This document shows positions 21,500 to 42,995 of a stretch of 64,000 nucleotides of DNA, piece by piece. A program made the position numbers and the translations under genes. How positions within the stretch are numbered: the first letter of the stretch is position 1; every line of letters begins with the position of its first letter. The notes below the pieces were generated by a model, which was not told the DNA's origin, made no database searches, and saw only the letters and a program-made list of their open reading frames with translations. This DNA is from a plasmid. Location of the stretch: the sequence record NZ_CP119397.1; one strand, written 5' to 3'.

Positions 21500-21793
21500 A
21501 TGAAAACGATAAGCTATACCAAAATGCGTGATGATCTGGCGAATGTGCTTGAAATGCTGAGAAGTGGTGAACCCGTGACGGTTACTCAACGCGGCGAGCC
21601 GGACATTGTGTTAAATGCAGAGGCCGAGCCTGCTATCAAAGCAGGAAGCTGGAGAACGGCTGGGGAAAACCAACCAAAACAGCTCATCACCTCGCTGACA
21701 AAAAAAATGTCAGAAGGGATGACGTTTGAACAAGCCAAAGCAAAAACGCAAATGAAACACGCACATATTATTAAAGCCCTGGAAGATAAATAA
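21500..21793 (+). CDS. Phd/YefM-family type II antitoxin-like protein.
   Basis: The N-terminus fits the Phd/YefM pattern (MKTISYTKMRDDLANVLEMLRSGEPVTVTQRG). A doc remnant follows immediately. GAGGTGA RBS. Confidence 0.55.
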   Translation: MKTISYTKMRDDLANVLEMLRSGEPVTVTQRGEPDIVLNAEAEPAIKAGSWRTAGENQPKQLITSLTKKMSEGMTFEQAKAKTQMKHAHIIKALEDK

Positions 21794-22034: not shown

Positions 22035-22280
22035 AGAACGGGGTTTTCTCGCAGCCTGAAGGCAGCCCCTTTTATGAGTTGGGGTTAATCGTAAGTTATT
22101 ACAATCGGCTGTTTCTGCTAATGAATAAAGCCTCTGACAGGTATCATTGCATGTACCGTCAATTTCCCCCGTGTTTCCACCCTGCATCCCACCCCCGCTG
22201 AAACCTCATTCACAATTATCCGGCGCGTAATCACACTTTCCTGATAAGGGTATTGTCTGGTGTTTTTTCTGCTGTAGATT

Positions 22281-22296
22281 GCTAACTCGAGTTAGC
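22281..22296. promoter_or_regulatory. Perfect 16-bp palindrome GCTAACTCGAGTTAGC, LacI-type operator candidate (site A).
   Basis: Self-complementary with a central CG. Overlaps a putative -10 (TAGATT), with TTGTCT 16 nt upstream. Near-identical sites occur at 27922 and 28093. Confidence 0.5.
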
Positions 22297-22454
22297 TTGG
22301 CGGAAGAGAGGGAGGATAGGCCGCGTGGGGCGCGGGCAATGGGTCTCCTCTTCGCAGTGGCCGGGCAGACACGGCACAGTGTGCGGCCTGCCGGTGCGGG
22401 ATGGCCGCATGTTCAGCCTGGGACAAGCAGGCTTTTGCGATGAGGAGCTAGACC

Positions 22455-23681
22455 ATGCATCACATGACATCAGGGCTACTGGGGCATTTGACCAAAACCA
22501 GCCAGGCCACCAGCGGGCGCTTTTCCAGCCACGACACCAGCGGGAAAAATCAGGATTACTGGATGATCGGCGCAGGGGACACTGTGCGGCTGGCGGACAT
22601 CCAGGGGCCGGGCTGTATTACCCATCTGTGGATGACGCAGTTCTGCCGCCGCGTGCTCGGGCCGGGGCTGATTGACCCGGCCGCCGGGCAATATGTCGCG
22701 CCCATCAATGAGATCAATAATGCGCTCGGCGTCAGCTGGGAAATCCACGACCCGGACTACTACCGCAAGGTGCTGCTGAAAATCTACTGGGATGACCAGA
22801 CCACGCCCTCGGTGCTGGTGCCGCTGGGGGATTTCTTCTGCGTCGGCCACGGCATCCCGGCCACCTTCACCAGCCTGCCGTTTACCGTCTCTGTCCGGCC
22901 GGAAGAGCAGTACCGCCCCGGCGGCACGGCGGCGCTTAACTGCTACCTGCCGATGCCGTTTAACAGCCGGGCGATCATCGAAGTCGAAAACCAGAACGAC
23001 GTGCCTTACGGGCAATATTTCCACATCGATTACGAGCAGTACCCGCAGGCGCTGGGCACCGATACCGCCTATTTCCACGCCAGCTGGCGGCGCGAAGCGC
23101 CCTGTGCCGGCTGGGCGCCGGAGTTGCAGGTCAACAGCCCCGAGGTGAATATCGCGAACCTGGACGGCGCCAATAACTATGTGATCCTCGACATCGAAGG
23201 CGAGGGGCATTACATCGGTTGCAACCTGTCGGTGGCCCATGCGCAGGGCACCTGGTGGGGCGAAGGGGATGACATGATCTTCGTGGACGATGACACCTGG
23301 CCGCCGACGCTGGTGGGCACCGGCAGCGAAGACTATTTCAACCATGCGTGGGGGATGCAGGAGAACGCCTCGCTGATGAACGGCTGCTCGCTGCATGACG
23401 CGCATGTGCCGGGGCACCAGACCTGCTACCGCTTCCACCTCACCGATCCGGTGCATTTCAAAAAACGTATCCGCGTCACCATGGAACACGGCCACGCCAA
23501 CCACCTGGCGGATGACTGGGCCACCACCGCCTACTGGTATCAGACCTTGCCCTCCCAACCGGTCACCATCCAGCCGGTAGAGGAACGGCTGCCGGGGCAA
23601 CGCACGGGGGAACCGCAGGTGGCGTTAACCCCGGAAATGCAGCAGCAAAAGCGCAGGCGCAGCAGCGTTTCGCGGCGATGA
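22455..23681 (+). CDS. DUF2961 / glycoside hydrolase family 172-like protein (alpha-D-fructo/arabinofuranosidase family).
   Basis: Pattern recalled for DUF2961: DIQGPGCITHLWMT, GTGSEDYF. Sits in a context with a GPH symporter and a LacI regulator. GAGGAG RBS. The C-terminal ~15 aa may be affected by a frameshift. Confidence 0.65.
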   Translation: MHHMTSGLLGHLTKTSQATSGRFSSHDTSGKNQDYWMIGAGDTVRLADIQGPGCITHLWMTQFCRRVLGPGLIDPAAGQYVAPINEINNALGVSWEIHDPDYYRKVLLKIYWDDQTTPSVLVPLGDFFCVGHGIPATFTSLPFTVSVRPEEQYRPGGTAALNCYLPMPFNSRAIIEVENQNDVPYGQYFHIDYEQYPQALGTDTAYFHASWRREAPCAGWAPELQVNSPEVNIANLDGANNYVILDIEGEGHYIGCNLSVAHAQGTWWGEGDDMIFVDDDTWPPTLVGTGSEDYFNHAWGMQENASLMNGCSLHDAHVPGHQTCYRFHLTDPVHFKKRIRVTMEHGHANHLADDWATTAYWYQTLPSQPVTIQPVEERLPGQRTGEPQVALTPEMQQQKRRRSSVSRR

Positions 23682-23826
23682 TGCGCCTGCGCCAGGAGGG
23701 TATTGACCAGAAACTGGCGGCCACGCGGCAAAAATCCGCGCTGAACCGCCGGACAAAATAACCCTTCCCCCTGTCAGGGCAGGGCCAGCCTGCCCTGAAC
23801 CCGTTGACGTGAACCGAGGTACAGTG

Positions 23827-25191
23827 ATGGATAACCGATTATCTGTGCTGGAAAAAAGTGCCTATGGCTCGGGTGACATGGCGCTCACCATCTCCATAAT
23901 TTCAGCCTCTATTTTGATTTACGCTTTCCTGATCCAGGTGGTCGGGTTAACGCCCGTGGACGCCGGCTGGATCCTGATGGCGGTGCGCACCATTGATGCC
24001 ATCTCCGACCCGATGATGGGCTGGCTGACCGGCAAAGTGCGCACGCGCCTCGGCCGTTACCGCCATTGGTTGCTGATTGGCGCGCTGCCGTTCGGCATCT
24101 CCCTTTACCTGCTGTTTACCACGTTCGGCCAGAGCTACGGCGAGAAAATGGCCTGGTCAACCGGGGTTTATATCTTTAACAGCCTGGCATTTACCGTGCT
24201 GGCCATTCCTTATATCTCGCTGATCGGCGTGATGACGCGTGACCCGCAGGAGCGGCTGCTGGCGAACGCGTACCGGTTCCCGATGGCGAAAGTCGCCACG
24301 CTGATTGTCTCCACCTTTGTGCCGTATTGGGTCACCAGCGGCGGGGATGCGCGCAGCAGTTATGCGAATGCGTTTCTGGTGATTGGGCTGGTCAGCGTCG
24401 CGCTGGTGATGTTCTGCGCCTTTAACGTCAAAGAGCGCGTCAAACCGGAAGCGCCGCCCGAACCGCTGGCGCGGCAGATTTCCGGGCTGGTGAAAAACGA
24501 TCAATGGCTGGCGCTGAGCCTGGCGATGGTACTGCTGTTTATCGGCTTGCTGGTGAACGGCAGCATCGCCATCATCTACGGCAAGGAGTTCGCCGGGGCC
24601 ACCGATGGCTGGGGCATCGCATTTTTCATGGGCATGGGATCGGTGGGCGGCATCGTCGGCCCGTTTGTCTCGCTTTGGCTCACGAAACGCTACTGCAAAG
24701 TCGCGGTGTTCCGCTGGTCGATGTATGGCTCGGCGCTGGTGTCGGCGCTGGCCTGGCTGCTGGTGGGGCAGAACGATTTCTACCTGGCGACCGCCTTTTA
24801 CCTGCTCTGTTCGATTGTCTCGCAGATCAACACCCCGATCCTCTGGTCATCAATTACTGAAGCCTCGGATTACGGCCGGATTAAAACCGGCATCGACGCG
24901 GGCGGGCTGTCGATTGGGATGATCTCGTTTTGCCAGAAATTCGGGATGGGATTATCCGGCCCGATCACCGGATACCTGATGACCTGGGTCGGTTACCGCG
25001 CCGGTACTGCGCTACAGCCGGAGGCCATCAGCGGGATAGAGGGGATCATGACGCTGGTGCCCGCCTTCTTCTATATTGTGGTCGGGCTGGTGATGCGCAA
25101 ATACATCATCAACAACAGCTACTACAACGCCATGATGGCGGAAAACAGCCTGCCCGCCGCCGCAATCAAAGAGCACCAATGGGCGGGCTGA
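23827..25191 (+). CDS. MFS transporter, glycoside-pentoside-hexuronide (GPH):cation symporter family.
   Basis: GPH N-terminal signature (LSVLEKSAYGSGDMA...DAISDPMMGWLTGKVRTRLGRYRHW). 12 TM segments. Confidence 0.8.
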   Translation: MDNRLSVLEKSAYGSGDMALTISIISASILIYAFLIQVVGLTPVDAGWILMAVRTIDAISDPMMGWLTGKVRTRLGRYRHWLLIGALPFGISLYLLFTTFGQSYGEKMAWSTGVYIFNSLAFTVLAIPYISLIGVMTRDPQERLLANAYRFPMAKVATLIVSTFVPYWVTSGGDARSSYANAFLVIGLVSVALVMFCAFNVKERVKPEAPPEPLARQISGLVKNDQWLALSLAMVLLFIGLLVNGSIAIIYGKEFAGATDGWGIAFFMGMGSVGGIVGPFVSLWLTKRYCKVAVFRWSMYGSALVSALAWLLVGQNDFYLATAFYLLCSIVSQINTPILWSSITEASDYGRIKTGIDAGGLSIGMISFCQKFGMGLSGPITGYLMTWVGYRAGTALQPEAISGIEGIMTLVPAFFYIVVGLVMRKYIINNSYYNAMMAENSLPAAAIKEHQWAG

Positions 25192-25202
25192 CAGGACGGC
25201 GG

Positions 25203-26195
25203 TCAGCGGTGCCGGGTGATTAACGTCATGTCCACATTCAGCGCGCCCAGCGGGGGCGCGCCGTCTATCCGCTGCTGCATCATCTCAAACGCCTGCTGCG
25301 CCCAGGCATCCTCGTTCTGCTGCATCGACCAGACATTATTCGCCAGGAAACTCAGCATCGGGTGCTCGTCAAAGGTGCCGAGGTTGATAGCGCCCGGCAG
25401 CGCCCCGGCGTGGGCGCGCACGGCCTCAATCGCCCCTTCCAGCACCGGCAGGGAGGAGGCGATAAAGGCGGCGGGCAGCCCGTGCGTGTTGATGACCTGC
25501 GCCATCATCGCGTTGCCGCTTTCGGCGCTGTTGCCGCGGCCGGTCGCCACCCAGGCTGCCGGGTCAAGGCCGTGCGCCGTCAGTACGCGCCGGTAGCCCG
25601 CCAGCCGTTGGCGGATGGAGGGCAGCTCCGGGTCACCGGCCAGGAACCACAACGGCGGCGCGCCCGCCTGCAACATCGCCTGCGTCAGCGTCTCGCCCCC
25701 ATCAATGTTGTTGCTCTCGACCAGCGAATGGTTCATCCCGAGGAAATCACGGTCGAGAAACACCAGCGGTTTTTTTACCCGCTTCAGGTGGTGCTGCTGG
25801 TTCTCACGGCTGGAGGGCACAATAAACAGCCCGTCGGTGTTGCGCGCAATCATCGCCTCCACCCGCTTATTCTCATACTCCGGGTCATCGTAGGTGCAGC
25901 TGATCATCAACTGGTAGCCGAATTTACGGCAGTACAGCTCCAGCTTTTCGGCCAGCGTGGCAAAAAAGACGTTGGAGAGGCAGGGCAGGATCAGCCCGAG
26001 GGTGTAGGTTTTATTGAGTTTCAGGCTGCGGGCAGAGTGGTTGAGGGTATAGCCGTGGTGGCCGACATACTCCATGACCCGCGTCTGGGTTTTCGCGCTG
26101 ATGCGGTACTGTGCTGCTTTGTTCCCCAATACCAGCCGGACGGTGGTCACCGACAGGTTCAGGTCATTCGCTATCTGTTCTACCGTTTTCGCCAT
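25203..26195 (-). CDS. LacI-family transcriptional regulator.
   Basis: N-terminal HTH (TVEQIANDLNLSVTTVRLVLGNKAAQYRISAKTQTRV) and a periplasmic-binding-protein-like effector domain. Confidence 0.85.
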   Translation of the reverse strand: MAKTVEQIANDLNLSVTTVRLVLGNKAAQYRISAKTQTRVMEYVGHHGYTLNHSARSLKLNKTYTLGLILPCLSNVFFATLAEKLELYCRKFGYQLMISCTYDDPEYENKRVEAMIARNTDGLFIVPSSRENQQHHLKRVKKPLVFLDRDFLGMNHSLVESNNIDGGETLTQAMLQAGAPPLWFLAGDPELPSIRQRLAGYRRVLTAHGLDPAAWVATGRGNSAESGNAMMAQVINTHGLPAAFIASSLPVLEGAIEAVRAHAGALPGAINLGTFDEHPMLSFLANNVWSMQQNEDAWAQQAFEMMQQRIDGAPPLGALNVDMTLITRHR

Positions 26196-26252
26196 GCCAT
26201 ACCGCTCCCTTCACGCCGTGACTGGCCGGTAGTATAAAGGCAAAGCGCGTGC

Positions 26253-26280
26253 AGCGCCCCCCTAAACAGGCGGGGGGCTG
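26253..26280 (-). terminator. GC-rich hairpin (CCCCCC/GGGGGG stem) downstream of the FGGY kinase gene.
   Basis: agcgcccccc-taaacagg-cggggggct, followed on the minus strand by a T-rich tract. Confidence 0.4.
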
Positions 26281-26311
26281 CGATAACCTGCGCCGGAACA
26301 GCAAGATAGCC

Positions 26312-27892
26312 TCAGCGCATCAGCGTATTGAGCGCCTGTTGCTGATCGTACATCGCCAGATAGGCGCGGTATTTCTGATCGTGGAACGCTTTTTTCGTCA
26401 CATTGGCCGCGATCACCCGGTCAGGGCGTACCATCGCCGCACAGGCGGCGGTGATGCCCGGCCAGTAACCGCCTGCCGCCGCGCCGGTAATCGCCGCGCC
26501 GAGCGTGACCGGGTCATCGTCACTCACCAGCTGGATATCACAGCCGGTGATGTCGGCGTATTCGCGCAGCCACAGCGGGTTACGCGTCGCCCCGCCGCAC
26601 ATCACCAGCCGCGTGACCCGGTGGCCGGAGGCCGCCATTACCTCCATGATGTGCCGGGTGCCGTAGGCGATCGCCTGTAGCGTGGCGAGGTAAAGCCGTG
26701 CCAGTGCCGGTTCGCCGCGTTCCAGCGTCAGGCCGCTGACGCTGCCGCGCGCGTCCGGTTGGGCACGGGGTGAGCGGTTGCCGTGGTGATCCGCCAGCAC
26801 ATGCAGGTGGCGGGTCGGGAACGGCTCGCGCTGTTCCAGTTGTGCCACCCAACGGTTGACCAGTTCCACCGGGTGGCACTGCTGCGCGGCGGCCTGCTCC
26901 GTGAGGTGCACACTGCCGCCCTGCTGGTGCAGCGTCCAGTCCACCAGCGCGCCCGCCGCGCTCTGCCCGCCCTCCGTCAGCCACCAGCCCGGCAGCATCG
27001 CTGACCAGTACGGCCCCCAGACCCCCGGCGTCATCACCTTTTCGCGGTTCGCCAGCATATGGCAGTTGGAGGTGCCGCTGATCAGCGCCAGCGTGGCGTC
27101 CGGTTGGGTACCCAGCAGCGCCAGCCCGCCCGCATGGGCATCGATCATCCCGGCGGCCACCACCACCTGCGGCGACAGCCCCAGCGCGTCGGCTGCCTGC
27201 GGGGTGAGCGTCCCGGCACGTGCGCCGACCTCCAGCACCGTCGCCGGGAGTTTTTCCGGCAGATCGCCAAGGCCCACCGCCGCTAACAGACTCTCGCTGA
27301 AGCGCTGCTCATGCGCCAGGTAATTCCACTTGCAGGTCAGGGTACAGAGGCTGGCGGCGTCCTGGCCGGTGGCTTTCCATACCAGAAAATCCGCCAGGTC
27401 GAAGAAACGGTGCACCTGCCGGTAGCGTTCCGGCAAATGGGTTTTCAGCCACAGCACCTTGGGCAGTTGCATCTCGAGGCTGACTTCACCGCCGACATAC
27501 TGCAACGCCTCATCACCGGTCTGGTTGATGCAGGCGGCCTCTGCCCCGGCGCGGTGATCCATCCACATGATGGTGTCGTGTGCCGCGTTTCCCTCGGGCG
27601 ACACCGCCACGCCGTGGCCCGCCGCATCCACCGCCACCAGCGAACAGGTGGCGTCAAACCCCAGCGAGCGCACCGCCCGGCGGTCAATACCGGCTTTGTC
27701 CAGCGCGGTATTGACCACCGCGCAGACCTGCTGCCAGATCTCTGACGAGGCGTGTTCCACCCGCTCGCCGCCGGGGCGGAACTGGGTAATGGGTTCTACC
27801 GCAAACGCCAGCCGCGTACCTTGCGCGTCATACACGCCGGCCCGTACGCTGGCTGAGCCGACATCCACCCCTAAAAAGTAATCCTGTGCCAT
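26312..27892 (-). CDS. FGGY-family carbohydrate (pentulose) kinase, D-ribulokinase-like. It is not FucK-like.
   Basis: FGGY N-terminus (YFLGVDVGSASVRAGVYD) and a C-terminal FGGY domain (VMCGGATRNPLWLREYADITGCDIQL). AGGAGGG RBS before the ATG at 27892. Confidence 0.8.
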   Translation of the reverse strand: MAQDYFLGVDVGSASVRAGVYDAQGTRLAFAVEPITQFRPGGERVEHASSEIWQQVCAVVNTALDKAGIDRRAVRSLGFDATCSLVAVDAAGHGVAVSPEGNAAHDTIMWMDHRAGAEAACINQTGDEALQYVGGEVSLEMQLPKVLWLKTHLPERYRQVHRFFDLADFLVWKATGQDAASLCTLTCKWNYLAHEQRFSESLLAAVGLGDLPEKLPATVLEVGARAGTLTPQAADALGLSPQVVVAAGMIDAHAGGLALLGTQPDATLALISGTSNCHMLANREKVMTPGVWGPYWSAMLPGWWLTEGGQSAAGALVDWTLHQQGGSVHLTEQAAAQQCHPVELVNRWVAQLEQREPFPTRHLHVLADHHGNRSPRAQPDARGSVSGLTLERGEPALARLYLATLQAIAYGTRHIMEVMAASGHRVTRLVMCGGATRNPLWLREYADITGCDIQLVSDDDPVTLGAAITGAAAGGYWPGITAACAAMVRPDRVIAANVTKKAFHDQKYRAYLAMYDQQQALNTLMR

Positions 27893-27921
27893 TTTCCCTC
27901 CTGCGGTGATGCGATGAGTCA

Positions 27922-27942
27922 TTGCTGATTCGACGTAGCGTT
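27922..27942. promoter_or_regulatory. Operator-like site TTGCTGATTCGACGTAGCGTT (site C).
   Basis: Matches GCTNNNTCGANNNAGC. Lies 30 bp upstream of the FGGY start. Confidence 0.45.
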
Positions 27943-28092
27943 GGGCAGACCATAATTCACCCGGCATTTTCCCTCAAACAGTTTGGCAGAAGTTTGTGAA
28001 CGGGCGCAGGTCAGCCGCGCTTTTGTGCGCAGGCGTGAAAACCCTCACAGAACGTTCTGAAAGGGGTTGCCGACTTTTTGCTGTTCGCCCTA

Positions 28093-28112
28093 AGCTACGT
28101 CGAGTTAGCAAT
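28093..28112. promoter_or_regulatory. Operator-like site AAGCTACGTCGAGTTAGCAA (site B).
   Basis: Identical to site A at 18 of 20 positions. Lies upstream of fucI and inverted relative to site C. Confidence 0.45.
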
Positions 28113-28165
28113 AATCTGCGCCGGAAATGCGGCGCACCGCGTGATTCTTTTTACAGGGGAACGTT

Positions 28166-29944
28166 ATGACTCACAGCAACCCATTACCCCGTATCGGCAT
28201 CCGCCCGGTGATTGACGGGCGGCGCATGGGCATCCGGGAATCGTTAGAGGCGCAGACCATGGCGATGGCCTGCGCCACCGCACGCCTGCTCAGCGGCACC
28301 TTGCGCCATGCGAACGGCGAGCGCGTAGAGTGTGTGATTGCCGAACAGTGCATTGCCGGGCGGGCAGAGGCCGCCGCCTGTGAAGCGGCCTTCAGCACCC
28401 AACATGTTGGCCTGACCATTACGGTGACGCCCTGCTGGTGCTACGGCAGTGAAACCATCGACATGGACCCGCAGCGGCCGAAAGCGATCTGGGGCTTCAA
28501 CGGCACCGAGCGGCCGGGGGCGGTCTATCTGGCGGCAGCGCTGGCGGCGCATAACCAGAAAGGGCTGCCGGCGTTTTCGATTTACAGCCACGAGGTGCAG
28601 GACGCCGGGGACGAGCGCATTCCGCCTGACGTGCAGGAGAAGCTGCTGCGCTTCGCCCGTGCCGGGCTGGTGGTGGCGACATTGCGCGGCAAAAGTTACC
28701 TGTCGCTGGGCGGGGTATCGATGGGGATCGCCGGGTCGATTGTCGACCATGACTTTTTCGAGTCCTGGCTGGGGATGGCGGTGCAGTGCGTGGACATGAC
28801 CGAGCTGCGCCGCCGGATGGACCACGCTATTTATGATGAAGAGGAGCTTGGCCTTGCGCTGGCGTGGGCGGGGCAGCATTTCCGCTTTGGGGAAGACCGC
28901 AACGCCGCGCACCATCAGCGCAGCGCCGCCGGGAAACAGGCGATGCTGCGCGAATCTCTGCTGATGGCGATCTGCATCCGCGACATGATGCAGGGCAACC
29001 CGGTACTGGCGGAGAAAGGCTGGGGCGAGGAGGCGCTGGGGTACAACGCCATTGCCGCCGGTTTTCAGGGCCAACGCCACTGGACCGATCACTACCCGAA
29101 CGGCGACACCGCGGAAGCCTTGCTCAACAGCGCGTTTGACTGGCACGGCATAGGCGAACCCGGTGTGCTGGCAACAGAAAATGACAGCCTGAATGCGGTG
29201 GCGATGCTGTTCGGCAAACACCTCACCGGCACCGCGCAGATTTTTGCCGATGTCCGCACCTACTGGTCACCGGCCTCGGTGCAGCGGGTCACCGGCCATA
29301 CGCTTACCGGCCGCGCCGCGCAGGGCGTGATCCACCTGATTAACTCCGGCTCGGCGGCGCTGGACGGTACCGGCTGCCAGCAGGCAAGCGACGGCCGGCC
29401 GGCCATCAAGCCGCATTGGGACATCACGCCGCAGGAGGCGGACGCCTGCCTGGCGGCCACCACCTGGCACCCGGCGCTGCATGACTATTTCCGTGGCGGC
29501 GGCTTCTCCTCCTGCTTCCTGACCCGCGGCGGTATTCCTTTCACCATGACGCGCATTAACCTGATCAAAGGGCGTGGGCCGGTGCTGCAAATCGCCGAAG
29601 GCTGGAGTGTGGATCTGCCGCCGGAGGTGCATGACACCCTGAACCAGCGCACTGACCCGACCTGGCCGACCACCTGGTTTGTGCCGCGCCTCACCGGCAG
29701 CGGCCCGTTCAGTGAGGTGTATAACGTGATGGCGAACTGGGGGGCCAACCACGCGGTGCTTACCGCCGGGCACGTCGGGGCGGATTTCATTACCCTGGCG
29801 GCGATGCTGCGCATCCCGGTCTGTATGCATAACGTGCCCGATGCGCAGATCTACCGCCCCAGCGCCTGGGCCGCCTTCGGCATGGACCCCGAAGCACAGG
29901 ATGACCGCGCCTGCCAACACTATGGCCCGGTATATAAACGTTGA
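28166..29944 (+). CDS. fucI: L-fucose isomerase / D-arabinose isomerase FucI.
   Basis: Near-colinear similarity to E. coli FucI along the whole length ([15 protein letters not shown]...[15 protein letters not shown]...[32 protein letters not shown]). Confidence 0.9.
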
Positions 29945-29988: not shown

Positions 29989-30083
29989 ATCTCATGCCTG
30001 CCGGCATTGATCTGTAAAAAAACCTGCTATACCATGTGGGAATATAAATTCTTTTAAAACAGCTGGTTGCGATTGTTTTCCCG

Positions 30084-30524
30084 ATGAAAAAAAATGCTAA
30101 AGAAAAACCGGCATCTGCCGATATCTTCCTGACCACGTCTGTCACGTTGACGGGGTTTGATAAGGCTTACAGTGGTTTTGATAACGGCCGGTTTCACCGG
30201 CTGAGTGTCCAGATAAAGCCTTACTATTTTCCGACGGAAAACTGGATAACACGTTTCCATGAAAAATACCCGCATAGCGGCGTGGCATTTACCCTTTCTC
30301 AGCGTGGTATTGGCTATATCACGTTTCATGACATGACAATCAAGGCGGATGAACTCGATGCCTTTGTGTCTTCCCTGCTTGCTGTGATTGAAGGTATTAA
30401 CGAGGCAACGGGGAATGAACCTATTGTCACGGTGATAAGTGCCGGAGAGTGCGCACAGGCTGAGCACCCAGAGATCAATGCCTGTATGAACAGGATTGAT
30501 TTTTCACTGCAAGGAGCAAGATAA
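30084..30524 (+). CDS. Hypothetical protein (146 aa), no recognisable domain.
   Basis: ORF in the low-GC island. Translationally coupled to the next ORF (TAA and ATG 3 nt apart). No strong RBS. Confidence 0.5.
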   Translation: MKKNAKEKPASADIFLTTSVTLTGFDKAYSGFDNGRFHRLSVQIKPYYFPTENWITRFHEKYPHSGVAFTLSQRGIGYITFHDMTIKADELDAFVSSLLAVIEGINEATGNEPIVTVISAGECAQAEHPEINACMNRIDFSLQGAR

Positions 30525-30526
30525 AG

Positions 30527-31207
30527 ATGTTACAAGATGCCTGTGCCGCCTTTTCTCTCTTTAATACCTCGTCTGATCGGTTAAAGGCGCACTCCGCGCA
30601 CTATTTCCCGCGTTTTAATTACGCAGCCTGTGAGCTTTGGTTGTGCAATGAAATTTGCCATCTGGTTAATGCCGGGGAAAATGGTGTGCAGCAGATGTCA
30701 GACGGGGATGTGTTCCTCTATAATGAAGACGCAAAACGTGATTTAACCTTATATACCGCAGGAAGAACAGCCACCCCAGAAATAAAAAAACATATTGAAG
30801 TGAAAGTGGCTTACCCGGTAGAGAAATCAAAGTTCCTGGATTCCATAAGAAATTTGCGCGAAAAACTTACACCCTCGCTTGATGCTGAGTATCGGCTGGA
30901 AGGGTGGGTTTATCTGGTCTGGACGCAACATTATGCTATTTCACCGGACGCATTTTTTGAAACCCGTCTTCACTGGCTAAAAACGGAACTGGCATCCGGG
31001 GAATACCGTGGCGCATCAGGTATCACCTATCAACCCATGTTTTCTACGGTAAAACAGATTGCCGAGGGGAACTTAACCTGGCGCGGGCAGGATAAACACA
31101 TTGTGGTGAAAGCGGTGGCCTTTTCATTTCATAAAGAGTGGAAAGAAATATTCAAGGAAGTAAAAGAAAAGTATGCGGAGACCTTTGAGATTCTCGCCAC
31201 CCGTTAA
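30527..31207 (+). CDS. Hypothetical protein (226 aa) with a C-x4-C-x3-C-H cluster near the N-terminus.
   Basis: Low-GC ORF with an AGGAG RBS-like sequence upstream. Convergent with hcp. Confidence 0.55.
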   Translation: MLQDACAAFSLFNTSSDRLKAHSAHYFPRFNYAACELWLCNEICHLVNAGENGVQQMSDGDVFLYNEDAKRDLTLYTAGRTATPEIKKHIEVKVAYPVEKSKFLDSIRNLREKLTPSLDAEYRLEGWVYLVWTQHYAISPDAFFETRLHWLKTELASGEYRGASGITYQPMFSTVKQIAEGNLTWRGQDKHIVVKAVAFSFHKEWKEIFKEVKEKYAETFEILATR

Positions 31208-31270
31208 TGGGGCGCTGGCAAGGTATTATTGCCTGGAAGTATAGCAGCCTGATGTCGCAATACAGAAAGA

Positions 31271-31303
31271 AAACGGGGAGGCGGAGCGCTGCCCCGTTTT
31301 ATG
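31271..31303. terminator. Bidirectional rho-independent terminator (copy B of the ACGGGGAGGCGG repeat).
   Basis: aaaacgggg-aggcggagcgctg-ccccgtttt forms a perfect 9-bp stem with flanking T runs. Lies between convergent genes. Confidence 0.6.
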
Positions 31304-31309
31304 GCGCCA

Positions 31310-31789
31310 TTAAAAACGAGCCAGGTCGTTCCACTGGTCTGTATGGATAATGTTACCGTCACAATACTTCCAGGTTATTTTCCCATAACGCAGGAGAACG
31401 GTTTCAAGATGGGTTTTCGTGGAGGCGTCGGGATAGAGATCAGGGGTGATAGAGGTAATCTTAACATTTTCCAGCAGGGTGTTAAAATACTCGACTTCCC
31501 TGCCGGCCTCATTGACAGAATATTTTTTTATGACCGCGGATTTAAGGGTGAGATTATTGGTTAATGCTTTATACAGGAACGGTGTCGTCCTGTCCGCTTC
31601 TTTTTGAATCATGATGGGCGAATGGATACGGGTTCCCGTCAGGCGGCCGGTGTTCCCATCGATAGGAATAGTCAGATTGTGCGTAAAAAATTTCAGTTCG
31701 ATAGCGCCTTCTCTTCCAATAACTTCCGAGGCCCCAACAATCGGGGAGCCGTTTTCATCCGTTAACCATAAATAAGAGGGGTTGGACAT
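31310..31789 (-). CDS. hcp: Type VI secretion system tube protein Hcp (TssD), orphan copy.
   Basis: Hcp signatures (PSYLWLTDENGSPI...IPIDGNTGRLTGTRIH...LKSAVIKKYSVNEAGREVEYFNTLLENVKI...RYGKITWKYCDGNIIHTDQWN). AAGGAG RBS. The locus is AT-rich. Confidence 0.85.
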   Translation of the reverse strand: MSNPSYLWLTDENGSPIVGASEVIGREGAIELKFFTHNLTIPIDGNTGRLTGTRIHSPIMIQKEADRTTPFLYKALTNNLTLKSAVIKKYSVNEAGREVEYFNTLLENVKITSITPDLYPDASTKTHLETVLLRYGKITWKYCDGNIIHTDQWNDLARF

Positions 31790-31819
31790 TGATAACTCCT
31801 TTTGGTGTGATGTGTAATC

Positions 31820-32032
31820 CTAGTATTTTTCGAACTTCCCAATGATTTTACAATATAGCCAAAGTACAAAAAAAACAGAGGCGAGCATTAGCCGTCCCCA
31901 GTATTGAGGAAAGAAATGCAACCATAGGGATCCGAAAGCAAACACTAAAAAGGGTATAAACAAGTATTCAATTAATATTATAATAATGCTATTAAACACC
32001 GTGTTTGTCCCCAATAAAAGAAGCCAGATCAT
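31820..32032 (-). CDS. Small hydrophobic membrane protein (~70 aa, possibly 110 aa if it starts at 32152).
   Basis: 2-3 predicted TM helices (IWLLLLGTNTVFNSIIIILIEYLFIPFLVFAFGSLWLHFF). Lies between the 237-aa ORF and hcp. Confidence 0.35.
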   Translation of the reverse strand: MIWLLLLGTNTVFNSIIIILIEYLFIPFLVFAFGSLWLHFFPQYWGRLMLASVFFVLWLYCKIIGKFEKY

Positions 32033-32705
32033 CGAGGTTCCCAAAGGGGTTTTGTTTGACTTCCCTGATAATTTCAGAAAGAACAGGCTCGATAAAGTAA
32101 TAAAGCATTTCCATTTTTGCCTGGTAAAGCATCCAGTAATAGTCTGGGTCAAGCGCTTTCAACCTTCTGGCCGATAATGCCGCTTTTTGTTCAATTCCAA
32201 AGAAATAAAAGGTATAGGCTGCTGCGTGGGTTTTAGCAGCCAGCCTCTGGATTACCGTTTTTTGTATTATCTCTGATTGCGCCAGTGCAGAGGAAATTGA
32301 ATAAGCAAACGCATGGCGTGTCATTTTCGCGGTAAATGTGCTGCCGGCAAGGTAAGTCCCGTTTGCGACGAATTTACGGGCTGCGCCCTCTGGGTTGCCT
32401 TCTTTTATATCATCACAGACTGATTTAAAATAGAGGAAAAGCATCTGCCGGATGACATCATGATGCTTAAAAATAGATTGAATAGAATAGAGTGTCCTTA
32501 ATTCTTCGGAAAGTAATTCGTCACACACAGCATCGTAACCAGGAATAAAACAGGATGAATACCAACTGATGCGCTCCAGGCCGGAATAGAGGGCGGAGGA
32601 GACGTCTTCAGCGGATTGCATAACACGCTCAAACCCATGCTGTAAACTCAGGGCTAAATGCCTATCGTGTTGGAACTTGGCCCTCAGGTAATCAGATGCT
32701 CTCAT
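31992..32705 (-). CDS. Hypothetical protein (237 aa), predicted all-alpha, no recognisable domain.
   Basis: AT-rich ORF with a GGGAGAG RBS. Lies upstream of hcp on the same strand. Confidence 0.55.
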   Translation of the reverse strand: MRASDYLRAKFQHDRHLALSLQHGFERVMQSAEDVSSALYSGLERISWYSSCFIPGYDAVCDELLSEELRTLYSIQSIFKHHDVIRQMLFLYFKSVCDDIKEGNPEGAARKFVANGTYLAGSTFTAKMTRHAFAYSISSALAQSEIIQKTVIQRLAAKTHAAAYTFYFFGIEQKAALSARRLKALDPDYYWMLYQAKMEMLYYFIEPVLSEIIREVKQNPFGNLDDLASFIGDKHGV

Positions 32706-33814: not shown

Positions 33815-35887
33815 TTACGGGCGTCTGAACAGCGCAATGCTGCGCCCTTCCAGCTCGAAATCCTTCTCTTTGGTGATCACAATCCCCGGTTTTGCGGTGT
33901 CTGAGGTGGACAGCTCCAGCACCCAGCCGCCTTCACCGAATTGGGGAATGCGGAACGGCACATTGCCTTCAAACGGGTTGAACAGCATCAGCATGTCGTG
34001 CCAGATGCCCTCTTGCGACTCAAGGTCAGGCCGGTTGATATACACGCCAATGGTTGAGCCTTCATCCCACTGCTCCTCGCGCTGGAAACCGCCCCCGGCA
34101 TTGAACCATTTGATGTCCATGCCGTCGCGCCAGTTCTCGCGGCGCAGCAGCGGCTGTTGGGCGCGCAGGCTGATGACCCGGCGGGTGAACTCGCGCAGTG
34201 CCTGATCGTTGTCTGACAGGTCATCCCAGTGGATCCAGGAGATGTCGCTGTCCTGACAATAGCCGTTGTTGTTGCCTTGCTGGCTGCGGCCGAACTCATC
34301 ACCGGCCAGCAGCATCGGCGTGCCGTGGGAGAAGAACAGCGTGGCGAGGAAGTTGCGTTTCTGGCGCTCGCGCACCGTGGTGATGCCCTGGTCGCGGGTC
34401 GGCCCTTCCTCACCGTAGTTATAAGAGCGGTTATGGTTATGGCCGTCGTTGTTCTCTTCGCCGTTATCCTCGTTGTGCTTGTCGTTGTATGACACCAGAT
34501 CGTTCAGCGTAAAGCCGTCATGGGCGGTGATGAAGTTGACGCTTGCCCACGGGCGGCGGCCGCGCTGGTCGTAGAGGTCACCGGAGCCGAGCAGGCGGGC
34601 GGCGAAATCGGTCGTGACGTTATCGCCTTTCCAGTATTCACGCACCGTGTCGCGGTATTTGTCATTCCACTCGGCCCAGCCCGGCGGGAAGCCGCCGACC
34701 TGATAACCGCCGGGGCCGATGTCCCACGGCTCGCCAATCAGCTTGAGTTTGGACAATACCGGGTCTTGCATCATCGCATCGAAAAAGCCGCTGCGCTGGT
34801 CGAAGCCTTCCGGCTCACGGCCCAGGATGGTGCCGAGGTCAAAGCGGAAGCCGTCAATGTGCATCGTTTCCGCCCAGTAACGCAGCGAATCCATGATCAT
34901 CTGCAACACGCGCGGGTGCGAGGTGTTCACGGTGTTCCCGGTGCCGGTGTCGTTGATGTAGTAACGGTGCTGGTCGGGCAGGGTGCGGTAATAGGAGAAG
35001 TTGTCGATGCCTTTGAACGACAGCGTCGGGCCAAGTTCGTTGCCCTCCGCCGTGTGGTTGTACACCACGTCGAGGATCACCTCGATATTGGCGTCATGGT
35101 AGGCACGCACCATATCGCGGAACCCCTGGATGCCGTTCGGCCCGTAATAGCGCGAGGCAGGGGCGAAGAAGCCCAGGGTGTTATAGCCCCAGAAATTCTT
35201 CAGCCCGCGGTCGAGCAGGTGCTGGTCATCCGGGAACCAGTGCACCGGCAGCAGCTCCACCGAGGTGATGCCGAGGCTTTTGATGTACTCCACCGAGGCC
35301 TTATGGCCCATGCCCTCAAAGGTGCCGCGCAGCTCGCGCGGCAGCGCGCCGTTACGCTGCGTAAACCCTTTGACATGGGTCTCGTAAATCACCGTGTCTG
35401 ACCACGGGATCGCCGGGCGCTGCGTCTCCTGCCGGGCGTTGCCGGGGTCAATCACCCGGCACTTCGGCGTAAAGGGGGCGCTGTCACGGGCATCAAAGGT
35501 CAGGTCTTTATCTTCATGCAACAAATCATAGGCAAAATGCGCTTCATTCCATTCAATGTCCCCGGCCAGCTCACGCGCGTAGGGGTCAATCAACAGCTTG
35601 TTGGGGTTGAAGCGGTGGCCGTTCTCCGGATCGTAAGGGCCATACACGCGGTAACCGTAAAGTGCGCCCGGTTTCAGGCCCGGCACATAGCCGTGCCAGA
35701 CTTCATGCGTATATTCCGGCAGCTCCAGCCGGGCGATTTCGGTTTTTCCGCTGGGATCGTAAAGGCAAAGCTCAACGCGCTCCGCATGGGCTGAGAAGAG
35801 CGCAAAATTAACACCCTGACCATCAAAGTTGGCGCCAAGCACCTGGCCAGACCCTGTTGTGATTTCAAAAGGCTTATTGTTCGACAT
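33815..35887 (-). CDS. glgX: Glycogen debranching enzyme GlgX / TreX-type (GH13 isoamylase).
   Basis: N-terminal CBM48 region (LGANFDGQGVNFALFSAHAERVELCLYD) and GH13 catalytic regions (GFRFDLG, EPWD). GAGGAAAG RBS. Confidence 0.85.
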   Translation of the reverse strand: MSNNKPFEITTGSGQVLGANFDGQGVNFALFSAHAERVELCLYDPSGKTEIARLELPEYTHEVWHGYVPGLKPGALYGYRVYGPYDPENGHRFNPNKLLIDPYARELAGDIEWNEAHFAYDLLHEDKDLTFDARDSAPFTPKCRVIDPGNARQETQRPAIPWSDTVIYETHVKGFTQRNGALPRELRGTFEGMGHKASVEYIKSLGITSVELLPVHWFPDDQHLLDRGLKNFWGYNTLGFFAPASRYYGPNGIQGFRDMVRAYHDANIEVILDVVYNHTAEGNELGPTLSFKGIDNFSYYRTLPDQHRYYINDTGTGNTVNTSHPRVLQMIMDSLRYWAETMHIDGFRFDLGTILGREPEGFDQRSGFFDAMMQDPVLSKLKLIGEPWDIGPGGYQVGGFPPGWAEWNDKYRDTVREYWKGDNVTTDFAARLLGSGDLYDQRGRRPWASVNFITAHDGFTLNDLVSYNDKHNEDNGEENNDGHNHNRSYNYGEEGPTRDQGITTVRERQKRNFLATLFFSHGTPMLLAGDEFGRSQQGNNNGYCQDSDISWIHWDDLSDNDQALREFTRRVISLRAQQPLLRRENWRDGMDIKWFNAGGGFQREEQWDEGSTIGVYINRPDLESQEGIWHDMLMLFNPFEGNVPFRIPQFGEGGWVLELSTSDTAKPGIVITKEKDFELEGRSIALFRRP

Positions 35888-36230
35888 GCTTTCCTCGTTC
35901 TCAAAAGTACGGACTTTTCTGCACTGCAATGATGAGTACGTCAGCGTTTTTACACGACGGCATGAGCGGCATGAAATTTCGGTGTCACCAATCCTTGACT
36001 ATGCTGTAGGTAGGCCGGCAAGTGGTTGATTCTGCGTCGGGATGCTGCGTATGCCAATCAATCATAGACCATGCTGTAAGAAGTGCGGTGACGCTGTCAC
36101 CCCGCGCCGCCCAGACAGTGTGGCTGAAGGGCTGCCGTTCAGGCCGGAACAGGCAGTGAGGGCAGTACAGACGTACTGTGTGAAAGAGGCCGGAAACCAG
36201 GTCTTTTGCCTGACTTTTAAGGATGTACGT

Positions 36231-38175: not shown

Positions 38176-39045
38176 TTAACGTTTTACCTGGCCGGTTAAC
38201 CAGAACTTTTTATACCGTGCCGGGGGAATGCCCACCAGGTTATGGAATATCCGGTGGAAATTATTGACGTTATCGTAGCCGACGGCATTCGCCACTTCCG
38301 TCACGCCTAAATCCGTGCTCAATAACAGCGATTGTGCTTCGCCAATACGGCGGCGGGTCTGGTACTGTTTCGGCGAATAACCGGAAAAGGCCTTAAACAC
38401 ATGGGCAAGATAAAACCGGTTCATCTCCAGGGCGGAGGTCATTGCCGTGAAAGAGAGCTCATCCTTGTAATGCTCATCAATAAAGTTTTTAATTTTCTGG
38501 CCTAATGCCAGGGTGGGGCTTTCATACGTCTGGTGGTGTTCAATCCAGAGTCCCCGGCACATAAGAAGTAATGCACTCAACAGGCTGTTTGCTATATCAC
38601 TGGAGTAAGGTTTATTACTGCCGGCGTGATGCCACATCTGATAAAAAATATGCCGGATTTCATCACAATGTTCCCCGCCCGGCATCACAGCCATCTGGCC
38701 GCGTGGTGTCAGCGTATTTAAGGGTAACCCCTCAAATTTCAGCTGTTCGACACCGCAGCTGAATATCAGTAAATCATCGGAAGGATAAGGGTTTTCATCA
38801 TGCAAAATACCGGCATTAAACAGCAGTAAATCCCCCTGTTTTACCGGATAGCTCTGCCCATCGATGTTATACATCCCGCTGCCCTGCGTAATAAACAGCA
38901 GTTCAAAACGCTCGTCATGTTTATGCATCACCCTCGGGGTTGCGGCCTCACGGCCTTCCGCTTTACAGATAAACATCAGCCTGGGTCTGAAGCCATTCTC
39001 ATATCCGCCCGACACAGGATGTTCATTCACGCAGAATGTCAGCAT
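38176..39045 (-). CDS. AraC-family transcriptional regulator (cupin N-terminus).
   Basis: C-terminal AraC HTH (FTAMTSALEMNRFYLAHVFKAFSGYSPKQY). AAGGGAG RBS before the ATG at 39045. Confidence 0.8.
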   Translation of the reverse strand: MLTFCVNEHPVSGGYENGFRPRLMFICKAEGREAATPRVMHKHDERFELLFITQGSGMYNIDGQSYPVKQGDLLLFNAGILHDENPYPSDDLLIFSCGVEQLKFEGLPLNTLTPRGQMAVMPGGEHCDEIRHIFYQMWHHAGSNKPYSSDIANSLLSALLLMCRGLWIEHHQTYESPTLALGQKIKNFIDEHYKDELSFTAMTSALEMNRFYLAHVFKAFSGYSPKQYQTRRRIGEAQSLLLSTDLGVTEVANAVGYDNVNNFHRIFHNLVGIPPARYKKFWLTGQVKR

Positions 39046-39955
39046 GGTTTCTCCCTTAACGTTCAGCGCTATTCTTGCACTGCCACGCCGGGCAGTAGTC
39101 ATCAAATTTGCTTTTTACTAAAATTTAATTAACTGATTTATAACAACTTGGTGAATTTATTTATACCAAAAAGGATGATTTTTGCTTTGCGAAAATCTTG
39201 CTGCCGCTTATTTATGATCTGGGTCACATTTTTACTGCTATGAAAAAACCTTTCCGCTTTTGCCCTCTCTTGCCTGAGAAAAACCACGTTAAAAAATAGG
39301 GGGCAACACCGGGAAAAAAAGGCGCATTAATCGCATGGTTAATGAAGTGGGAAAAGGCGGTTTCTCTTCAAAACAGCATAAAGGGGCCTGTTAGCGTTAC
39401 CGTGGAATAAGAGACTTTCTATTCCAGGCAGGGGAGCGCTCCTGATAGTGATATTTGATAAATCCCCCTGATAAAGCAGGAGTCATTATTTTATATGCTC
39501 AGGCCTGTGCGCCTATAAAAGCGGGACAGGGTGAAGAGAGTGCAGTCACGGGAAATATCTTCATTCTTGCTAAATCAATGATTAACTTCGCGCTTGTGAC
39601 CCACATCACTGAAACCGGCTTTCTTAATAAAAAAAATTGATCTCCTGCACGGTATGAAAATTTCGATCTCAATGAGAATGGTTTTTTATTTTCAATTGGG
39701 GGTAATCTTGTTTCATCCATTGCCGGAGCCGAATAAAAACGGGATTAACCACAGATAAGCCAGACAGGCGTTTTCCCCCGCAAAAGGTTGGCCTGGATGT
39801 TAATGCATTACCTTAAGGGTGGGTTATTTATCATGAGATGAACAGTAGGGTATTGCTTTATTACCTTGTGAAAGGAAAAGCCCACAGGCGTCACCCTGGC
39901 CACATTTATCATGCCTATGCCGGTTAACACCTTAAAAACCAGATGGGGTAGTAAC

Positions 39956-41383: not shown

Positions 41384-41407
41384 TCCATGATAATGAGGTA
41401 AATAACC

Positions 41408-42433: not shown

Positions 42434-42507
42434 TCGTTTCACTCACGGAGCAGGGCAGGCACGTCGCGAGGGTTCGCCCGCGGCGTGGCATTGCACAGGA
42501 GCGGAAT

Positions 42508-42936: not shown

Positions 42937-42995
42937 CGCCAGCGGCGTTACCCAGGCTGTTTAACAATGTAGACATGACTGATAAAGGATGACAC

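Follow-up and report, generated by a model that had tools for sequence, protein, structure and literature searches.

A predicted LacI-family regulon joining a GH172 glycoside hydrolase to a D-arabinose pathway in Chimaeribacter arupi

What does an L-fucose isomerase gene do in a region with no other fucose gene, and why should it share its control sequences with a glycoside hydrolase? This question is raised by a 64-kb stretch of Chimaeribacter arupi DNA (record NZ_CP119397.1), here called the window, which is the sequence that was searched and to which all regulon counts apply. In it fucI lies beside genes for an FGGY-family kinase, a LacI-family regulator, a glycoside hydrolase of family 172 (GH172) and a GPH:cation symporter. 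A first-pass annotation proposed that shared palindromic operators link GH172 and GPH to the kinase gene and fucI, suggesting an undescribed regulon for the utilisation of D-arabinofuranosides and D-arabinose. D-Arabinose is a rare natural sugar, for the most part confined to mycobacterial and corynebacterial cell walls and also present in a few glycoconjugates; the enzymes that set it free became known as late as 2021-2023, from Actinobacteria and Bacteroidota. Based on comparison with related loci, the model favoured here (probability roughly 0.6) comprises a local repressor, import of a glycoside, its hydrolysis, isomerisation of the sugar released, and phosphorylation of the product.

Three probable operators and a local LacI-family regulator

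The pattern GCTNNNTCGANNNAGC has three exact matches in the 64 kb, and all three lie in promoter regions, namely those of GH172-GPH, of the FGGY kinase and LacI genes, and of fucI (Table 1). In 100 dinucleotide-preserving shuffles the mean was 0.04 matches and the maximum one, and none of the 100 reached three. A position weight matrix made from the sites scores the true window sites at 21.6-25.4, and no other site in the window scores 12 or more. Operator A is the perfect 16-bp palindrome first annotated (GCTAACTCGAGTTAGC), and both of the near-identical sites reported between the kinase gene and fucI are present, the last of them one base to the left of the position first given (28094-28109, not 28095-28110). 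The reported match of 18 out of 20 positions between A and C holds once the reverse strand of C is taken and the flanks are included (ttGCTAACTCGACGTAGCtt versus ttGCTAACTCGAGTTAGCtt). Operator A was also said to overlap a -10-like element; strictly, it abuts the hexamer TAGATT (22275-22280) and does not overlap it.

The putative GH172-GPH promoter matches the consensus at 8 of 12 positions. The -10-like hexamer of the putative kinase promoter, TATGGT, lies nine bases before operator B, and that of the putative fucI promoter, TAAGCT, overlaps the first three bases of operator C. Operator B is intergenic because the kinase starts at ATG 27892, a start backed by the gapless, end-to-end alignment of all 526 residues with the E. 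coli orthologue; the longest open reading frame (ORF) starts at 27967 and would place the site in coding sequence. Equivalents of operator A are found 78-94 nt upstream of the GH172 start in the cassette-type contigs L008 and L010 and in L096 (Enterobacter sp. PGRG2), and operator B is kept in the sister species C. californicus and in L008. In each of the six loci with fucI that were compared (the window, C. californicus, L008, L010, E. coli BL21 and Citrobacter), the operator nearest fucI is preceded at a constant distance by a CRP-like box (CGTGA-N6-TCACA), which begins exactly 60 nt before it, and the operator flanks cctaaGCT...TTAGCaa(a)taat are common to the window and BL21. A predicted CRP site near -61.5 and an operator over -10/+1 would together form one conserved fucI promoter layout.

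The distance between operators B and C varies: the window and C. californicus have 170 bp, L008 has 217 bp, and E. coli, Citrobacter and Atlantibacter have 239-240 bp. DNA looping between the divergent operators was considered and dropped; since these spacings share no helical phase, independent dimers are assumed. The GH172 leader of the window (22297-22454) is 158 nt long and very GC-rich, compared with 78-94 nt in other cassettes. A search with Rfam at gathering thresholds gave no match in the window, so the long leader corresponds to no known riboswitch. Two GC-rich inverted repeats overlap between operator C and the fucI start codon (28117-28142; TGCGCCGGAAATGCGGCGCA, followed by T-rich sequence); they are terminator-like in the scan, are partly kept in C. 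californicus, and could form a leader structure or an attenuator.

The effector domain of the regulator matches PF13407 (E = 5.5e-15), PF13377 (E = 1.6e-12) and PF00532 (E = 3.8e-8), all above cut-off (Peripla_BP_1/3/4). Its helix-turn-helix is divergent, with a weak score of 20.5 bits against PF00356, under the gathering cut-off of 27; TIGR02417 and the Cra structures align to the protein from residue 4, and SARSLKLNKT fits the hinge position. The best NCBIfam match is TIGR02417, the D-fructose-responsive transcription factors of the Cra/FruR-ScrR type, at 233.1 bits under a cut-off of 389.55. With the Cra equivalog NF008452 the score is 202 bits where 385 are required, and the nearest PDB entry is Cra itself (7X7H, E = 3e-38). 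The regulator and Cra share the insertion GKAxQYRIS after the recognition helix and a 16-bp palindromic site with a central CG and GCT...AGC ends. They differ in the recognition helix (LSVTTVRLV here, VSKTTASYV in Cra/FruR-ScrR), in the sub-threshold family score, and in the extent of the regulon, which is local with three sites here and global in Cra. The half-sites differ too, TAACTC here against TGAAAC or TGAATC in Cra. On these scores and alignments the regulator is classed as a distinct orthologous group related to Cra, and not as Cra, FruR or ScrR. Its gene follows the kinase gene by 116 bp and lacks an operator; the two genes are probably transcribed together, which would place the regulator under its own control through operator B.

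The first-pass annotation linked the sites to this regulator, and phylogenetic footprinting supports that link strongly. A protein search returned regulator orthologues 58-67% identical across Enterobacterales, and the contigs around them were used for comparison (L002, L003/4, L005, L006, L007, L008/9, L010/11, L015 of BL21, L098 and L099; taxa C. californicus, a Nissabacter-type and an Enterobacter-type contig, E. coli, Citrobacter, Atlantibacter, Yokenella, Dickeya and Serratia). In every locus fetched, high-scoring palindromes adjoin the regulator orthologue (58-94% identical) and lie in promoter regions despite differing neighbour genes, and the operator consensus across loci is the perfect palindrome GCTAACTCGAGTTAGC. 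The central CG and the 16-20-bp dyad had been read as typical of LacI-family operators, which agrees with palindromes that are conserved near promoters and the regulator gene beside all orthologues examined. All three sites are kept in C. californicus. E. coli 2014C-3075, BL21(DE3), Citrobacter and Atlantibacter have two sites between fucI and an ABC transporter operon, and among other five-gene cassettes the Nissabacter-type contig has three and the Enterobacter-type contig two. No site scoring 17 or more (true sites score at least 20) was found in about 790 kb of control DNA, made up of 736 kb of other GH172 loci, 49 kb of BL21 DNA flanking the locus, and the fuc locus of K-12, which lacks the regulator. 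Residues 1-60 of the regulator, including the recognition helix and the hinge, are nearly invariant across orthologues and differ from Cra, which fits a conserved and distinct operator. With such conservation it is very probable that the three sites are operators of the local LacI-family protein, and their position would point to repression, not activation, as the mode of control.

The same type of regulator also occurs with other genes. In Dickeya fangzhongdai (L005, 3031-11005) and Serratia fonticola (L099, 3424-10020), orthologues 58-61% identical and the same operator accompany an operon for an isomerase-like protein of 550 aa with a weak Fucose_iso_C match, a DHDPS-family protein, a BNR_2 beta-propeller protein and an MFS sugar transporter, to which Dickeya adds a DarK-like kinase. 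This operon may be for a further glycoside or pentose pathway governed by a repressor of this kind. In Yokenella regensburgei (L006, 6917-10996) a regulator 67% identical and a consensus operator are found with a transporter of the Na+/H+-antiporter family and a GH29 alpha-L-fucosidase, with neither FucI nor the kinase close by. alpha-L-Fucopyranosides are stereochemically analogous to beta-D-arabinopyranosides, so the effector in Yokenella could be a sugar of the fucoside or of the arabinoside type.

The FucI-kinase core and the GH172-GPH arm

The GPH symporter, FGGY pentulose kinase and FucI gene calls all hold at profile scores above cut-off, and a search with the PF11175 profile places the ORF at 22455 in DUF2961/GH172, as had been proposed. 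The kinase scores 510.6 bits against TIGR01315 (FGGY family pentulose kinase; cut-off 408.7). It stays under the cut-offs of the other FGGY families, with 234 versus 583 bits for AraB, 157 versus 380 for XylB, 92 versus 498 for GlpK and 64 versus 471 for FucK; this agrees with the earlier call of a non-FucK kinase, and the L-ribulokinase and glycerol kinase profiles are likewise far from reached. FucI has the full three-domain architecture (PF07881, PF07882 and PF02952). When E. coli proteins were used as tblastn queries, none of fucP, fucK, fucA, fucO, fucU and fucR was found in the window, the single match being that of FucK to the FGGY kinase itself at 23% identity. The absence of fucA, fucK and fucP first noted for this region thus extends to the 64 kb, which do not contain a canonical L-fucose regulon (fucPIKUR-fucAO). 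Neither was any GH32 (Klebsiella query) or GH29 (Yokenella query) found there by tblastn.

In E. coli, the orthologous regulator and kinase form, together with a three-gene ABC transporter, an island in the fucose locus between fucI and fucA that replaces fucP. Identities between the window and BL21 are 66% for the kinase, 65% for the regulator and 76% for FucI, and the kinase is 66-67% identical over 526 residues to the island kinase between fucA and fucI of both BL21(DE3) and strain 2014C-3075. Likeness to this island of E. coli B/BL21 supports the first-pass reading of the pathway as one for D-arabinose. According to Cottam et al. 2025 (PMC12307932), citing Elsinghorst and Mortlock 1994, the island kinase is DarK, a D-ribulokinase required for the metabolism of D-arabinose in E. 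coli B. The BL21 kinase gene between fucA and fucI has been assigned to D-arabinose catabolism by Kim et al. 2018 (PMC6150544), who found growth on D-arabinose in BL21(DE3) but not in K-12, and the ABC-transporter variant of the fuc locus in BL21 has been noted independently (PMC10221146). An IS1A insertion interrupts fucA in the sequence record of BL21(DE3) (NC_012971, 2765631-2767055). Since BL21 grows on D-arabinose despite fucA::IS1, the aldolase is not needed and FucI and DarK must suffice; we infer that the route in BL21 runs from D-arabinose to D-ribulose (FucI) and on to D-ribulose-5-phosphate (DarK). Growth together with the interrupted fucA likewise points to phosphorylation of D-ribulose at C5 by the kinase. 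FucI and a DarK orthologue without any other fuc gene are exactly the pair found in the Chimaeribacter window, and with good confidence this pair can be regarded as a route from D-arabinose to D-ribulose-5-phosphate.

The E. coli island and the Chimaeribacter locus also have in common the operator GCTAACTCGAGTTAGC, identical and in two copies in E. coli, and the fucI promoter layout, in which the 60-nt distance from CRP-like box to operator is kept and flanking bases agree. The two perfect operators of the BL21 locus (L015, 15528 and 15767) have apparently never been noted before. The loci differ in uptake and in company. The E. coli island has its three-gene ABC transporter for the free sugar and stands amid fucK, fucU, fucR, fucA and fucO, whereas the Chimaeribacter window has GH172 and the GPH symporter instead and no other fuc genes. 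With these two proteins in place of the ABC system, the cassette appears to be built for a glycoside and not for the free pentose. The Rbl locus of Citrobacter rodentium (PMC12307932) is similar in that a dedicated FGGY D-ribulokinase feeds the pentose phosphate pathway, but it imports D-ribulose itself by an ABC transporter, uses a KpsF-like isomerase and has neither FucI nor a glycosidase; DarK-type kinases fall in a clade separate from the Rbl type (Cottam et al., PMC12307932).

The gene order GH172-GPH, regulator-kinase and divergent fucI is found at three different chromosomal sites, each time with the operator upstream of GH172, the holders being the C. arupi window, the Nissabacter-type contig and the Enterobacter-type contig. 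Clusters of GH172 proteins with 71-77% identity to that of the window have among their members sequences named from Nissabacter sp. SGAir0207, Enterobacter sp. SA187/PGRG2, Huaxiibacter, Lelliottia and Superficieibacter. In the favoured explanation the cassette would be a small, horizontally mobile catabolic unit of Enterobacterales under one LacI-family repressor. Enterobacter sp. PGRG2 has a second, stand-alone GH172-GPH pair next to ffh (L096, 8891-11549), with a truncated GH172 of 390 aa and a half-degenerate operator (GCTCTCTCGAGTTAGC) at the usual upstream distance, which suggests that the pair may be controlled in trans by the regulator of the strain's full cassette.

Among characterised enzymes, GH172 of the window is closest to alphaFFase1 of Bifidobacterium dentium (PDB 7V1V; E = 3e-163, 55% identity over 397 aa by BLASTP) and much further from the D-arabinan exo-arabinofuranosidases (8IC8, E = 6e-33; 8AH3, E = 6e-49). 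The catalytic and -1 subsite residues listed for alphaFFase1 (E291, E270, D292, W267, W298 and Y187; PMC8605356) are all kept in the window protein and in three other cassette-type sequences. Both enzymes are thus alike in the catalytic Glu pair and -1 subsite, and both are of the cytoplasmic, retaining type. alphaFFase1 hydrolyses alpha-D-arabinofuranosides as well as alpha-D-fructofuranosides, with a kcat of 127 s-1 on pNP-alpha-D-Araf and release of D-arabinose from methyl alpha-D-Araf; it was assigned to difructose dianhydride I by its authors because its gene is adjacent to GH32, in a locus composed of a LacI regulator, GH32, GH172 and an ABC transporter (PMC8605356). In Chimaeribacter, FucI and DarK replace GH32, and some residues close to the +1 subsite differ. 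K147, which belongs to this subsite and is required with inulobiose but not with pNP-Araf (PMC8605356), is Arg in all four cassette-type sequences and also in two of eleven GH32-linked ones, and F263, invariant in those eleven, is Ala or Arg in the cassette type. E85, like K147 a +1 subsite residue required for the turnover of inulobiose and difructose dianhydride I, is kept in the window protein. The substitutions that set the four cassette-type enzymes apart from the eleven GH32-linked ones are H87N, F154P, F263A/R, S266T and E314D; they suggest an altered leaving-group site and do not in themselves prove a substrate.

The GPH symporter probably starts at ATG 23827, behind GAGGT, the longest ORF beginning at GTG 23809. 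None of the GPH equivalogs MelB, UidB and YagG reaches its cut-off, so these profiles assign it no substrate.

These components can be arranged in a model. In the uninduced state, repressor dimers would sit on the three 16-bp palindromes, on or just downstream of the -10 elements of the GH172-GPH, kinase-repressor and fucI promoters, and the fucI promoter, with its predicted CRP site at about -61.5, would need cAMP-CRP plus relief of repression. The GPH symporter would bring in a small alpha-D-arabinofuranoside, from which the cytoplasmic, retaining GH172 would free D-arabinose. FucI would convert this to D-ribulose, and the DarK-type FGGY kinase would turn D-ribulose into D-ribulose-5-phosphate for the pentose phosphate pathway, making an aldolase unnecessary. 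Candidate inducers are D-arabinose, D-ribulose or a phosphate ester of one of these.

Table 1. Genes and predicted control elements of the cassette, in window coordinates
Feature	Position	Strand	Sequence or evidence	Remarks
Putative sigma-70 promoter, GH172-GPH operon	22253-22280	+	-35 TTGTCT (22253-22258); 16-nt spacer; -10 TAGATT (22275-22280)	read by eye
Operator A	22281-22296		GCTAACTCGAGTTAGC	perfect 16-bp palindrome; directly after -10-like hexamer; would cover predicted transcription start
GH172 (DUF2961), alphaFFase1 clade	22455-23681	+	PF11175 E = 9.1e-85, full profile covered	no signal peptide
GC-rich 8-bp hairpin	23775-23797	+	CAGGGCAG ... CTGCCCTG	in 145-nt GH172-GPH spacer; no T tract
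GPH:cation symporter	23827-25191	+	TIGR00792 253.5 bits (cut-off 231.35); PF13347 E = 5e-72
LacI-family, Cra/FruR-like predicted repressor	25203-26195	-	Pfam, NCBIfam and PDB matches	provisional name 'DarR-type'
FGGY pentulose kinase	26312-27892	-	526 aa; ATG 27892; ribosome-binding site AGGAGGG	orthologue of the D-ribulokinase of the E. coli B DarK island
Operator B	27924-27939		GCTGATTCGACGTAGC	32 nt upstream of kinase start codon; about +3 to +18 of putative kinase promoter
Putative kinase-regulator promoter	27949-27977	-	-35 TTGAGG (27977-27972); 17-nt spacer; -10 TATGGT (27954-27949)	read by eye
CRP-like box	28034-28049		CGTGAAAACCCTCACA	one mismatch to TGTGA-N6-TCACA; would centre near -61.5 of putative fucI promoter
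Putative fucI promoter	28067-28096	+	-35 TTGCCG (28067-28072); 18-nt spacer; -10 TAAGCT (28091-28096)	read by eye
Operator C	28094-28109		GCTACGTCGAGTTAGC	begins 72 nt upstream of fucI start codon
L-fucose/D-arabinose isomerase FucI	28166-29944	+	NF008220 1088 bits (cut-off 775); TIGR01089 1078 bits (cut-off 850)

Substrate and rival readings

The part of the model most weakly inferred is the substrate of GH172 and GPH. An alpha-D-arabinofuranoside is slightly favoured, at a little better than even odds. The alternative is that both proteins handle alpha-D-fructofuranosides such as difructose dianhydride I, inulobiose and sugars derived from caramel or fructan, as in B. dentium. In that case the common operator would join sugar routes that have nothing to do with each other, or respond to an effector common to furanoses of D-arabino configuration. 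The close relationship of GH172 to alphaFFase1 and the retained E85 would suit such substrates, most close GH172 homologues are GH32-linked, and the subfamily that best matches the regulator is the D-fructose-responsive one. Moreover, the GPH symporter shares 57% identity with the MFS transporter encoded in the Klebsiella GH172-GH32 locus, so the GH172-transporter pair probably came from a fructoside locus and was combined with the D-arabinose core. On the other side, neither tblastn with a GH32 query nor Pfam scans of 43 of the 48 largest ORFs show a GH32 or other fructosidase in the window, so that inulobiose could not be used further without a cleaving enzyme from another part of the genome. 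Fructose catabolism has no place for FucI and a D-ribulokinase, yet every copy of the cassette includes both. In Klebsiella michiganensis (L012), Rhizobium (L097) and about ten metagenome loci, where GH172 occurs with GH32, the operator and FucI/DarK are absent. The cassette type is marked by its own set of changes around the +1 subsite (K147R, H87N, F263A/R, S266T and F154P), and in API 50CH tests all five C. arupi isolates were inulin-negative (PMC10587679). On balance, fructofuranosides seem an unlikely substrate.

A regulon for L-fucose or another L-galacto sugar would have FucI acting on L-fucose, the kinase as an atypical fuculokinase, and GH172 cleaving an L-fucofuranoside or L-galactofuranoside. 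FucI is an L-fucose isomerase equivalog, the E. coli island lies inside the fucose locus, and the Yokenella regulator and operator stand beside an alpha-L-fucosidase. However, the window has no class II aldolase and no fucK, fucP, fucU or fucO, the kinase is far from the fuculokinase cut-off, and the GH172 literature examined reports no activity on L-sugars. All five isolates were also L-fucose-negative in the API tests (PMC10587679), which argues against a fucose role for the Chimaeribacter FucI, and this reading is very improbable. Even less credible is the idea that the palindromes are bound by another LacI-family protein such as Cra, or are chance or structural repeats without a regulatory role. 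The left half of operator B (GCTGATTCGA) presumably resembles a Cra half-site. Against this, three sites were found where 0.04 were expected, the motif is tied strictly to regulator orthologues across ten genera whatever their neighbours and is absent from the regulator-less K-12 fuc locus, and the position of the sites relative to the -10 elements and the CRP box is conserved.

A different possibility, compatible with the D-arabinose model, is that the cassette is decaying in the window strain, with the glycoside arm lost to a frameshift and at most the FucI-kinase arm at work. The window, which is 98.3% identical to C. arupi strain 2016-Iso3 and represents a different strain, has a run of four A residues in GH172 (23647-23650), whereas 2016-Iso3 and a 435-aa NCBI protein have five. 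As a result the window protein has 408 aa; with one A restored it would have 435 aa and end at 23761. The frameshift swaps the last 36 residues for nine unrelated ones and removes most of a C-terminal helix that is intact in 2016-Iso3 and that forms the trimer-trimer interface in related GH172 hexamers, and D-arabinose fermentation varies among isolates. On the other hand, a homopolymer length error in the assembly would be an equally simple explanation, the trimer and not the hexamer has been described as the minimal catalytic unit, and the rest of the GH172 gene and all three operators are intact. Decay of the cassette in this strain is rather unlikely.

Several observations count against the arabinofuranoside model. 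Of the C. arupi isolates tested on D-arabinose by API 50CH, 2013-Iso5 was positive and DSM115072 weakly positive; 2016-Iso1, 2016-Iso2 and 2016-Iso3 were negative (PMC10587679). 2016-Iso3 (L001) is thus negative with an apparently intact cassette, as are two further isolates. Its negativity fits a glycoside symporter without import of the free sugar by an E. coli-type ABC system, but it is not positive support and leaves a gap in the argument. Neither FucI nor DarK occurs in any of 80 metagenome loci of GH172 relatives, a set that serves as a negative control, and as the enzyme belongs to the alphaFFase1 clade, whose members are otherwise mostly GH32-linked, its predicted arabinofuranoside substrate is read from context and not from its sequence. 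The likeness of GPH to a fructoside-locus transporter and the A4 run, which may be an assembly error or a real mutation impairing the hydrolase in the window strain, belong here too. A scan for strict sigma-70 consensus listed no promoter in either control region, the hand-read promoters being sub-consensus. The GH29 operon of Yokenella and the BNR_2/DHDPS operon of Dickeya and Serratia indicate that the effector may differ from D-arabinose in some lineages. Further regulon members, and also fucA or GH32, may lie beyond the 64-kb window. Finally, the substrates, inducer and kinase product are predicted from homology, context and published phenotypes.

Setting, precedents and significance

The G+C content of the cassette is 60-68% and its flanks are AT-richer. 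On the left, an AT-rich gap upstream of the cassette contains an ORF for a 97-aa protein (21500-21793) with a Phd/YefM antitoxin N-terminal domain (E = 1.4e-7) and no obvious toxin partner. On the right, a block of low G+C (30000-32700; 42-46%, versus about 60% in the cassette) contains an orphan T6SS hcp gene (31310-31789) and three ORFs without Pfam match (30084-30524, 30527-31207 and 31992-32705), and looks like separately acquired DNA. Beyond it are a divergent pair of glucan enzymes (33815-38117), one a CBM48/alpha-amylase-family protein (GH13, debranching-like) and the other a GH15 glucoamylase/trehalase-like protein, and a cluster that resembles inositol or rare-sugar catabolic loci (38176-43937), with an AraC-type regulator, a sugar transporter, a GFO/IDH/MocA oxidoreductase and a xylose-isomerase-like TIM-barrel protein. 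This cluster has no copy of the operator. Pfam scans covered 43 of the 48 largest ORFs of the window and found in them regulators, transporters, oxidoreductases, the GH13/GH15 pair and the hcp gene, and nothing besides the cassette that is tied to the breakdown of fucose, fructan or arabinan. Glycoside hydrolases other than GH172, GH13/CBM48 and GH15 were not seen in these ORFs, the Pfam accessions of GH183, GH116 and GH142 not having been looked up.

The locus is not a segment known from plasmids or E. coli: with the 8-kb region as megablast query, PLSDB plasmids gave nothing but fucI at 77% identity and complete E. coli genomes gave no match. A search of genome contigs with the regulator, by a method that detects close relatives only, gave matches only in two Chimaeribacter species.

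The overall logic of hydrolysis by GH172, isomerisation, phosphorylation and entry into the pentose phosphate pathway is already published for D-arabinan loci of other phyla. In Microbacterium arabinogalactanolyticum (PMC10509167) GH172, an isomerase and a kinase have been proposed to lead to D-ribulose-5-phosphate, and in PUL42 of Dysgonomonas gadei (PMC10115798) a fucose isomerase is highly expressed on D-arabinan. These loci resemble the Chimaeribacter cassette in combining an intracellular GH172, in their case an exo-alpha-D-arabinofuranosidase, with an isomerase and a kinase. They differ in adding endo-D-arabinanases (GH183), exo-beta-D-arabinofuranosidases (GH116/GH142) and uptake of the ABC or Sus type, and in that their GH172 enzymes are distant from that of the window. 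Within the Pfam coverage given above, the window does not have the GH183/DUF4185 enzyme and exo-beta-D-arabinofuranosidase of a D-arabinan polysaccharide utilisation locus, and the cassette could be used on pre-cut, small arabinosides only.

The word 'undescribed' in the first-pass annotation thus applies to part of the system. FucI and DarK are known as a pair from E. coli B, and the sequence of GH172, isomerase and kinase has been drawn for Microbacterium. In contrast, the LacI-family orthologous group and its operator (also in BL21), the shared CRP-operator promoter of fucI, and the enterobacterial GH172-GPH-D-arabinose cassette appear undescribed. No description of the E. coli island regulator or its operator was found in the papers examined, and in the text of the large survey of LacI-family regulons (Ravcheev et al. 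2014) neither fucose nor D-arabinose comes up.

We put forward, as a tentative extension of the arabinofuranoside model, that an alphaFFase1-type GH172 might have been repurposed via a remodelled +1 subsite from disaccharides of caramel or fructan to small alpha-D-arabinofuranosides, with the repressor as an unrecognised sensor of the D-arabinose pathway. Actinobacterial arabinogalactan, lipoarabinomannan and other D-Araf glycoconjugates are conceivable sources of such arabinofuranosides under the same tentative proposal. Should the model be true, several enterobacterial genera, clinical and plant-associated ones included, would own a compact route for scavenging D-arabinofuranosides, and D-arabinose metabolism would become a physiological function of the alphaFFase1 branch of GH172. 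The repressor and operator that underlie the well-known D-arabinose phenotype of E. coli B would be identified and could be tested directly in BL21(DE3); the same repressor would explain the expression of fucI and darK on D-arabinose in E. coli B/BL21 without mutation. The perfect 16-bp operator would also make the system a candidate orthogonal inducible promoter or biosensor for sugars of the D-arabinose type. Even if the substrate has been misread, a new LacI-family orthologous group with a defined operator would still stand.

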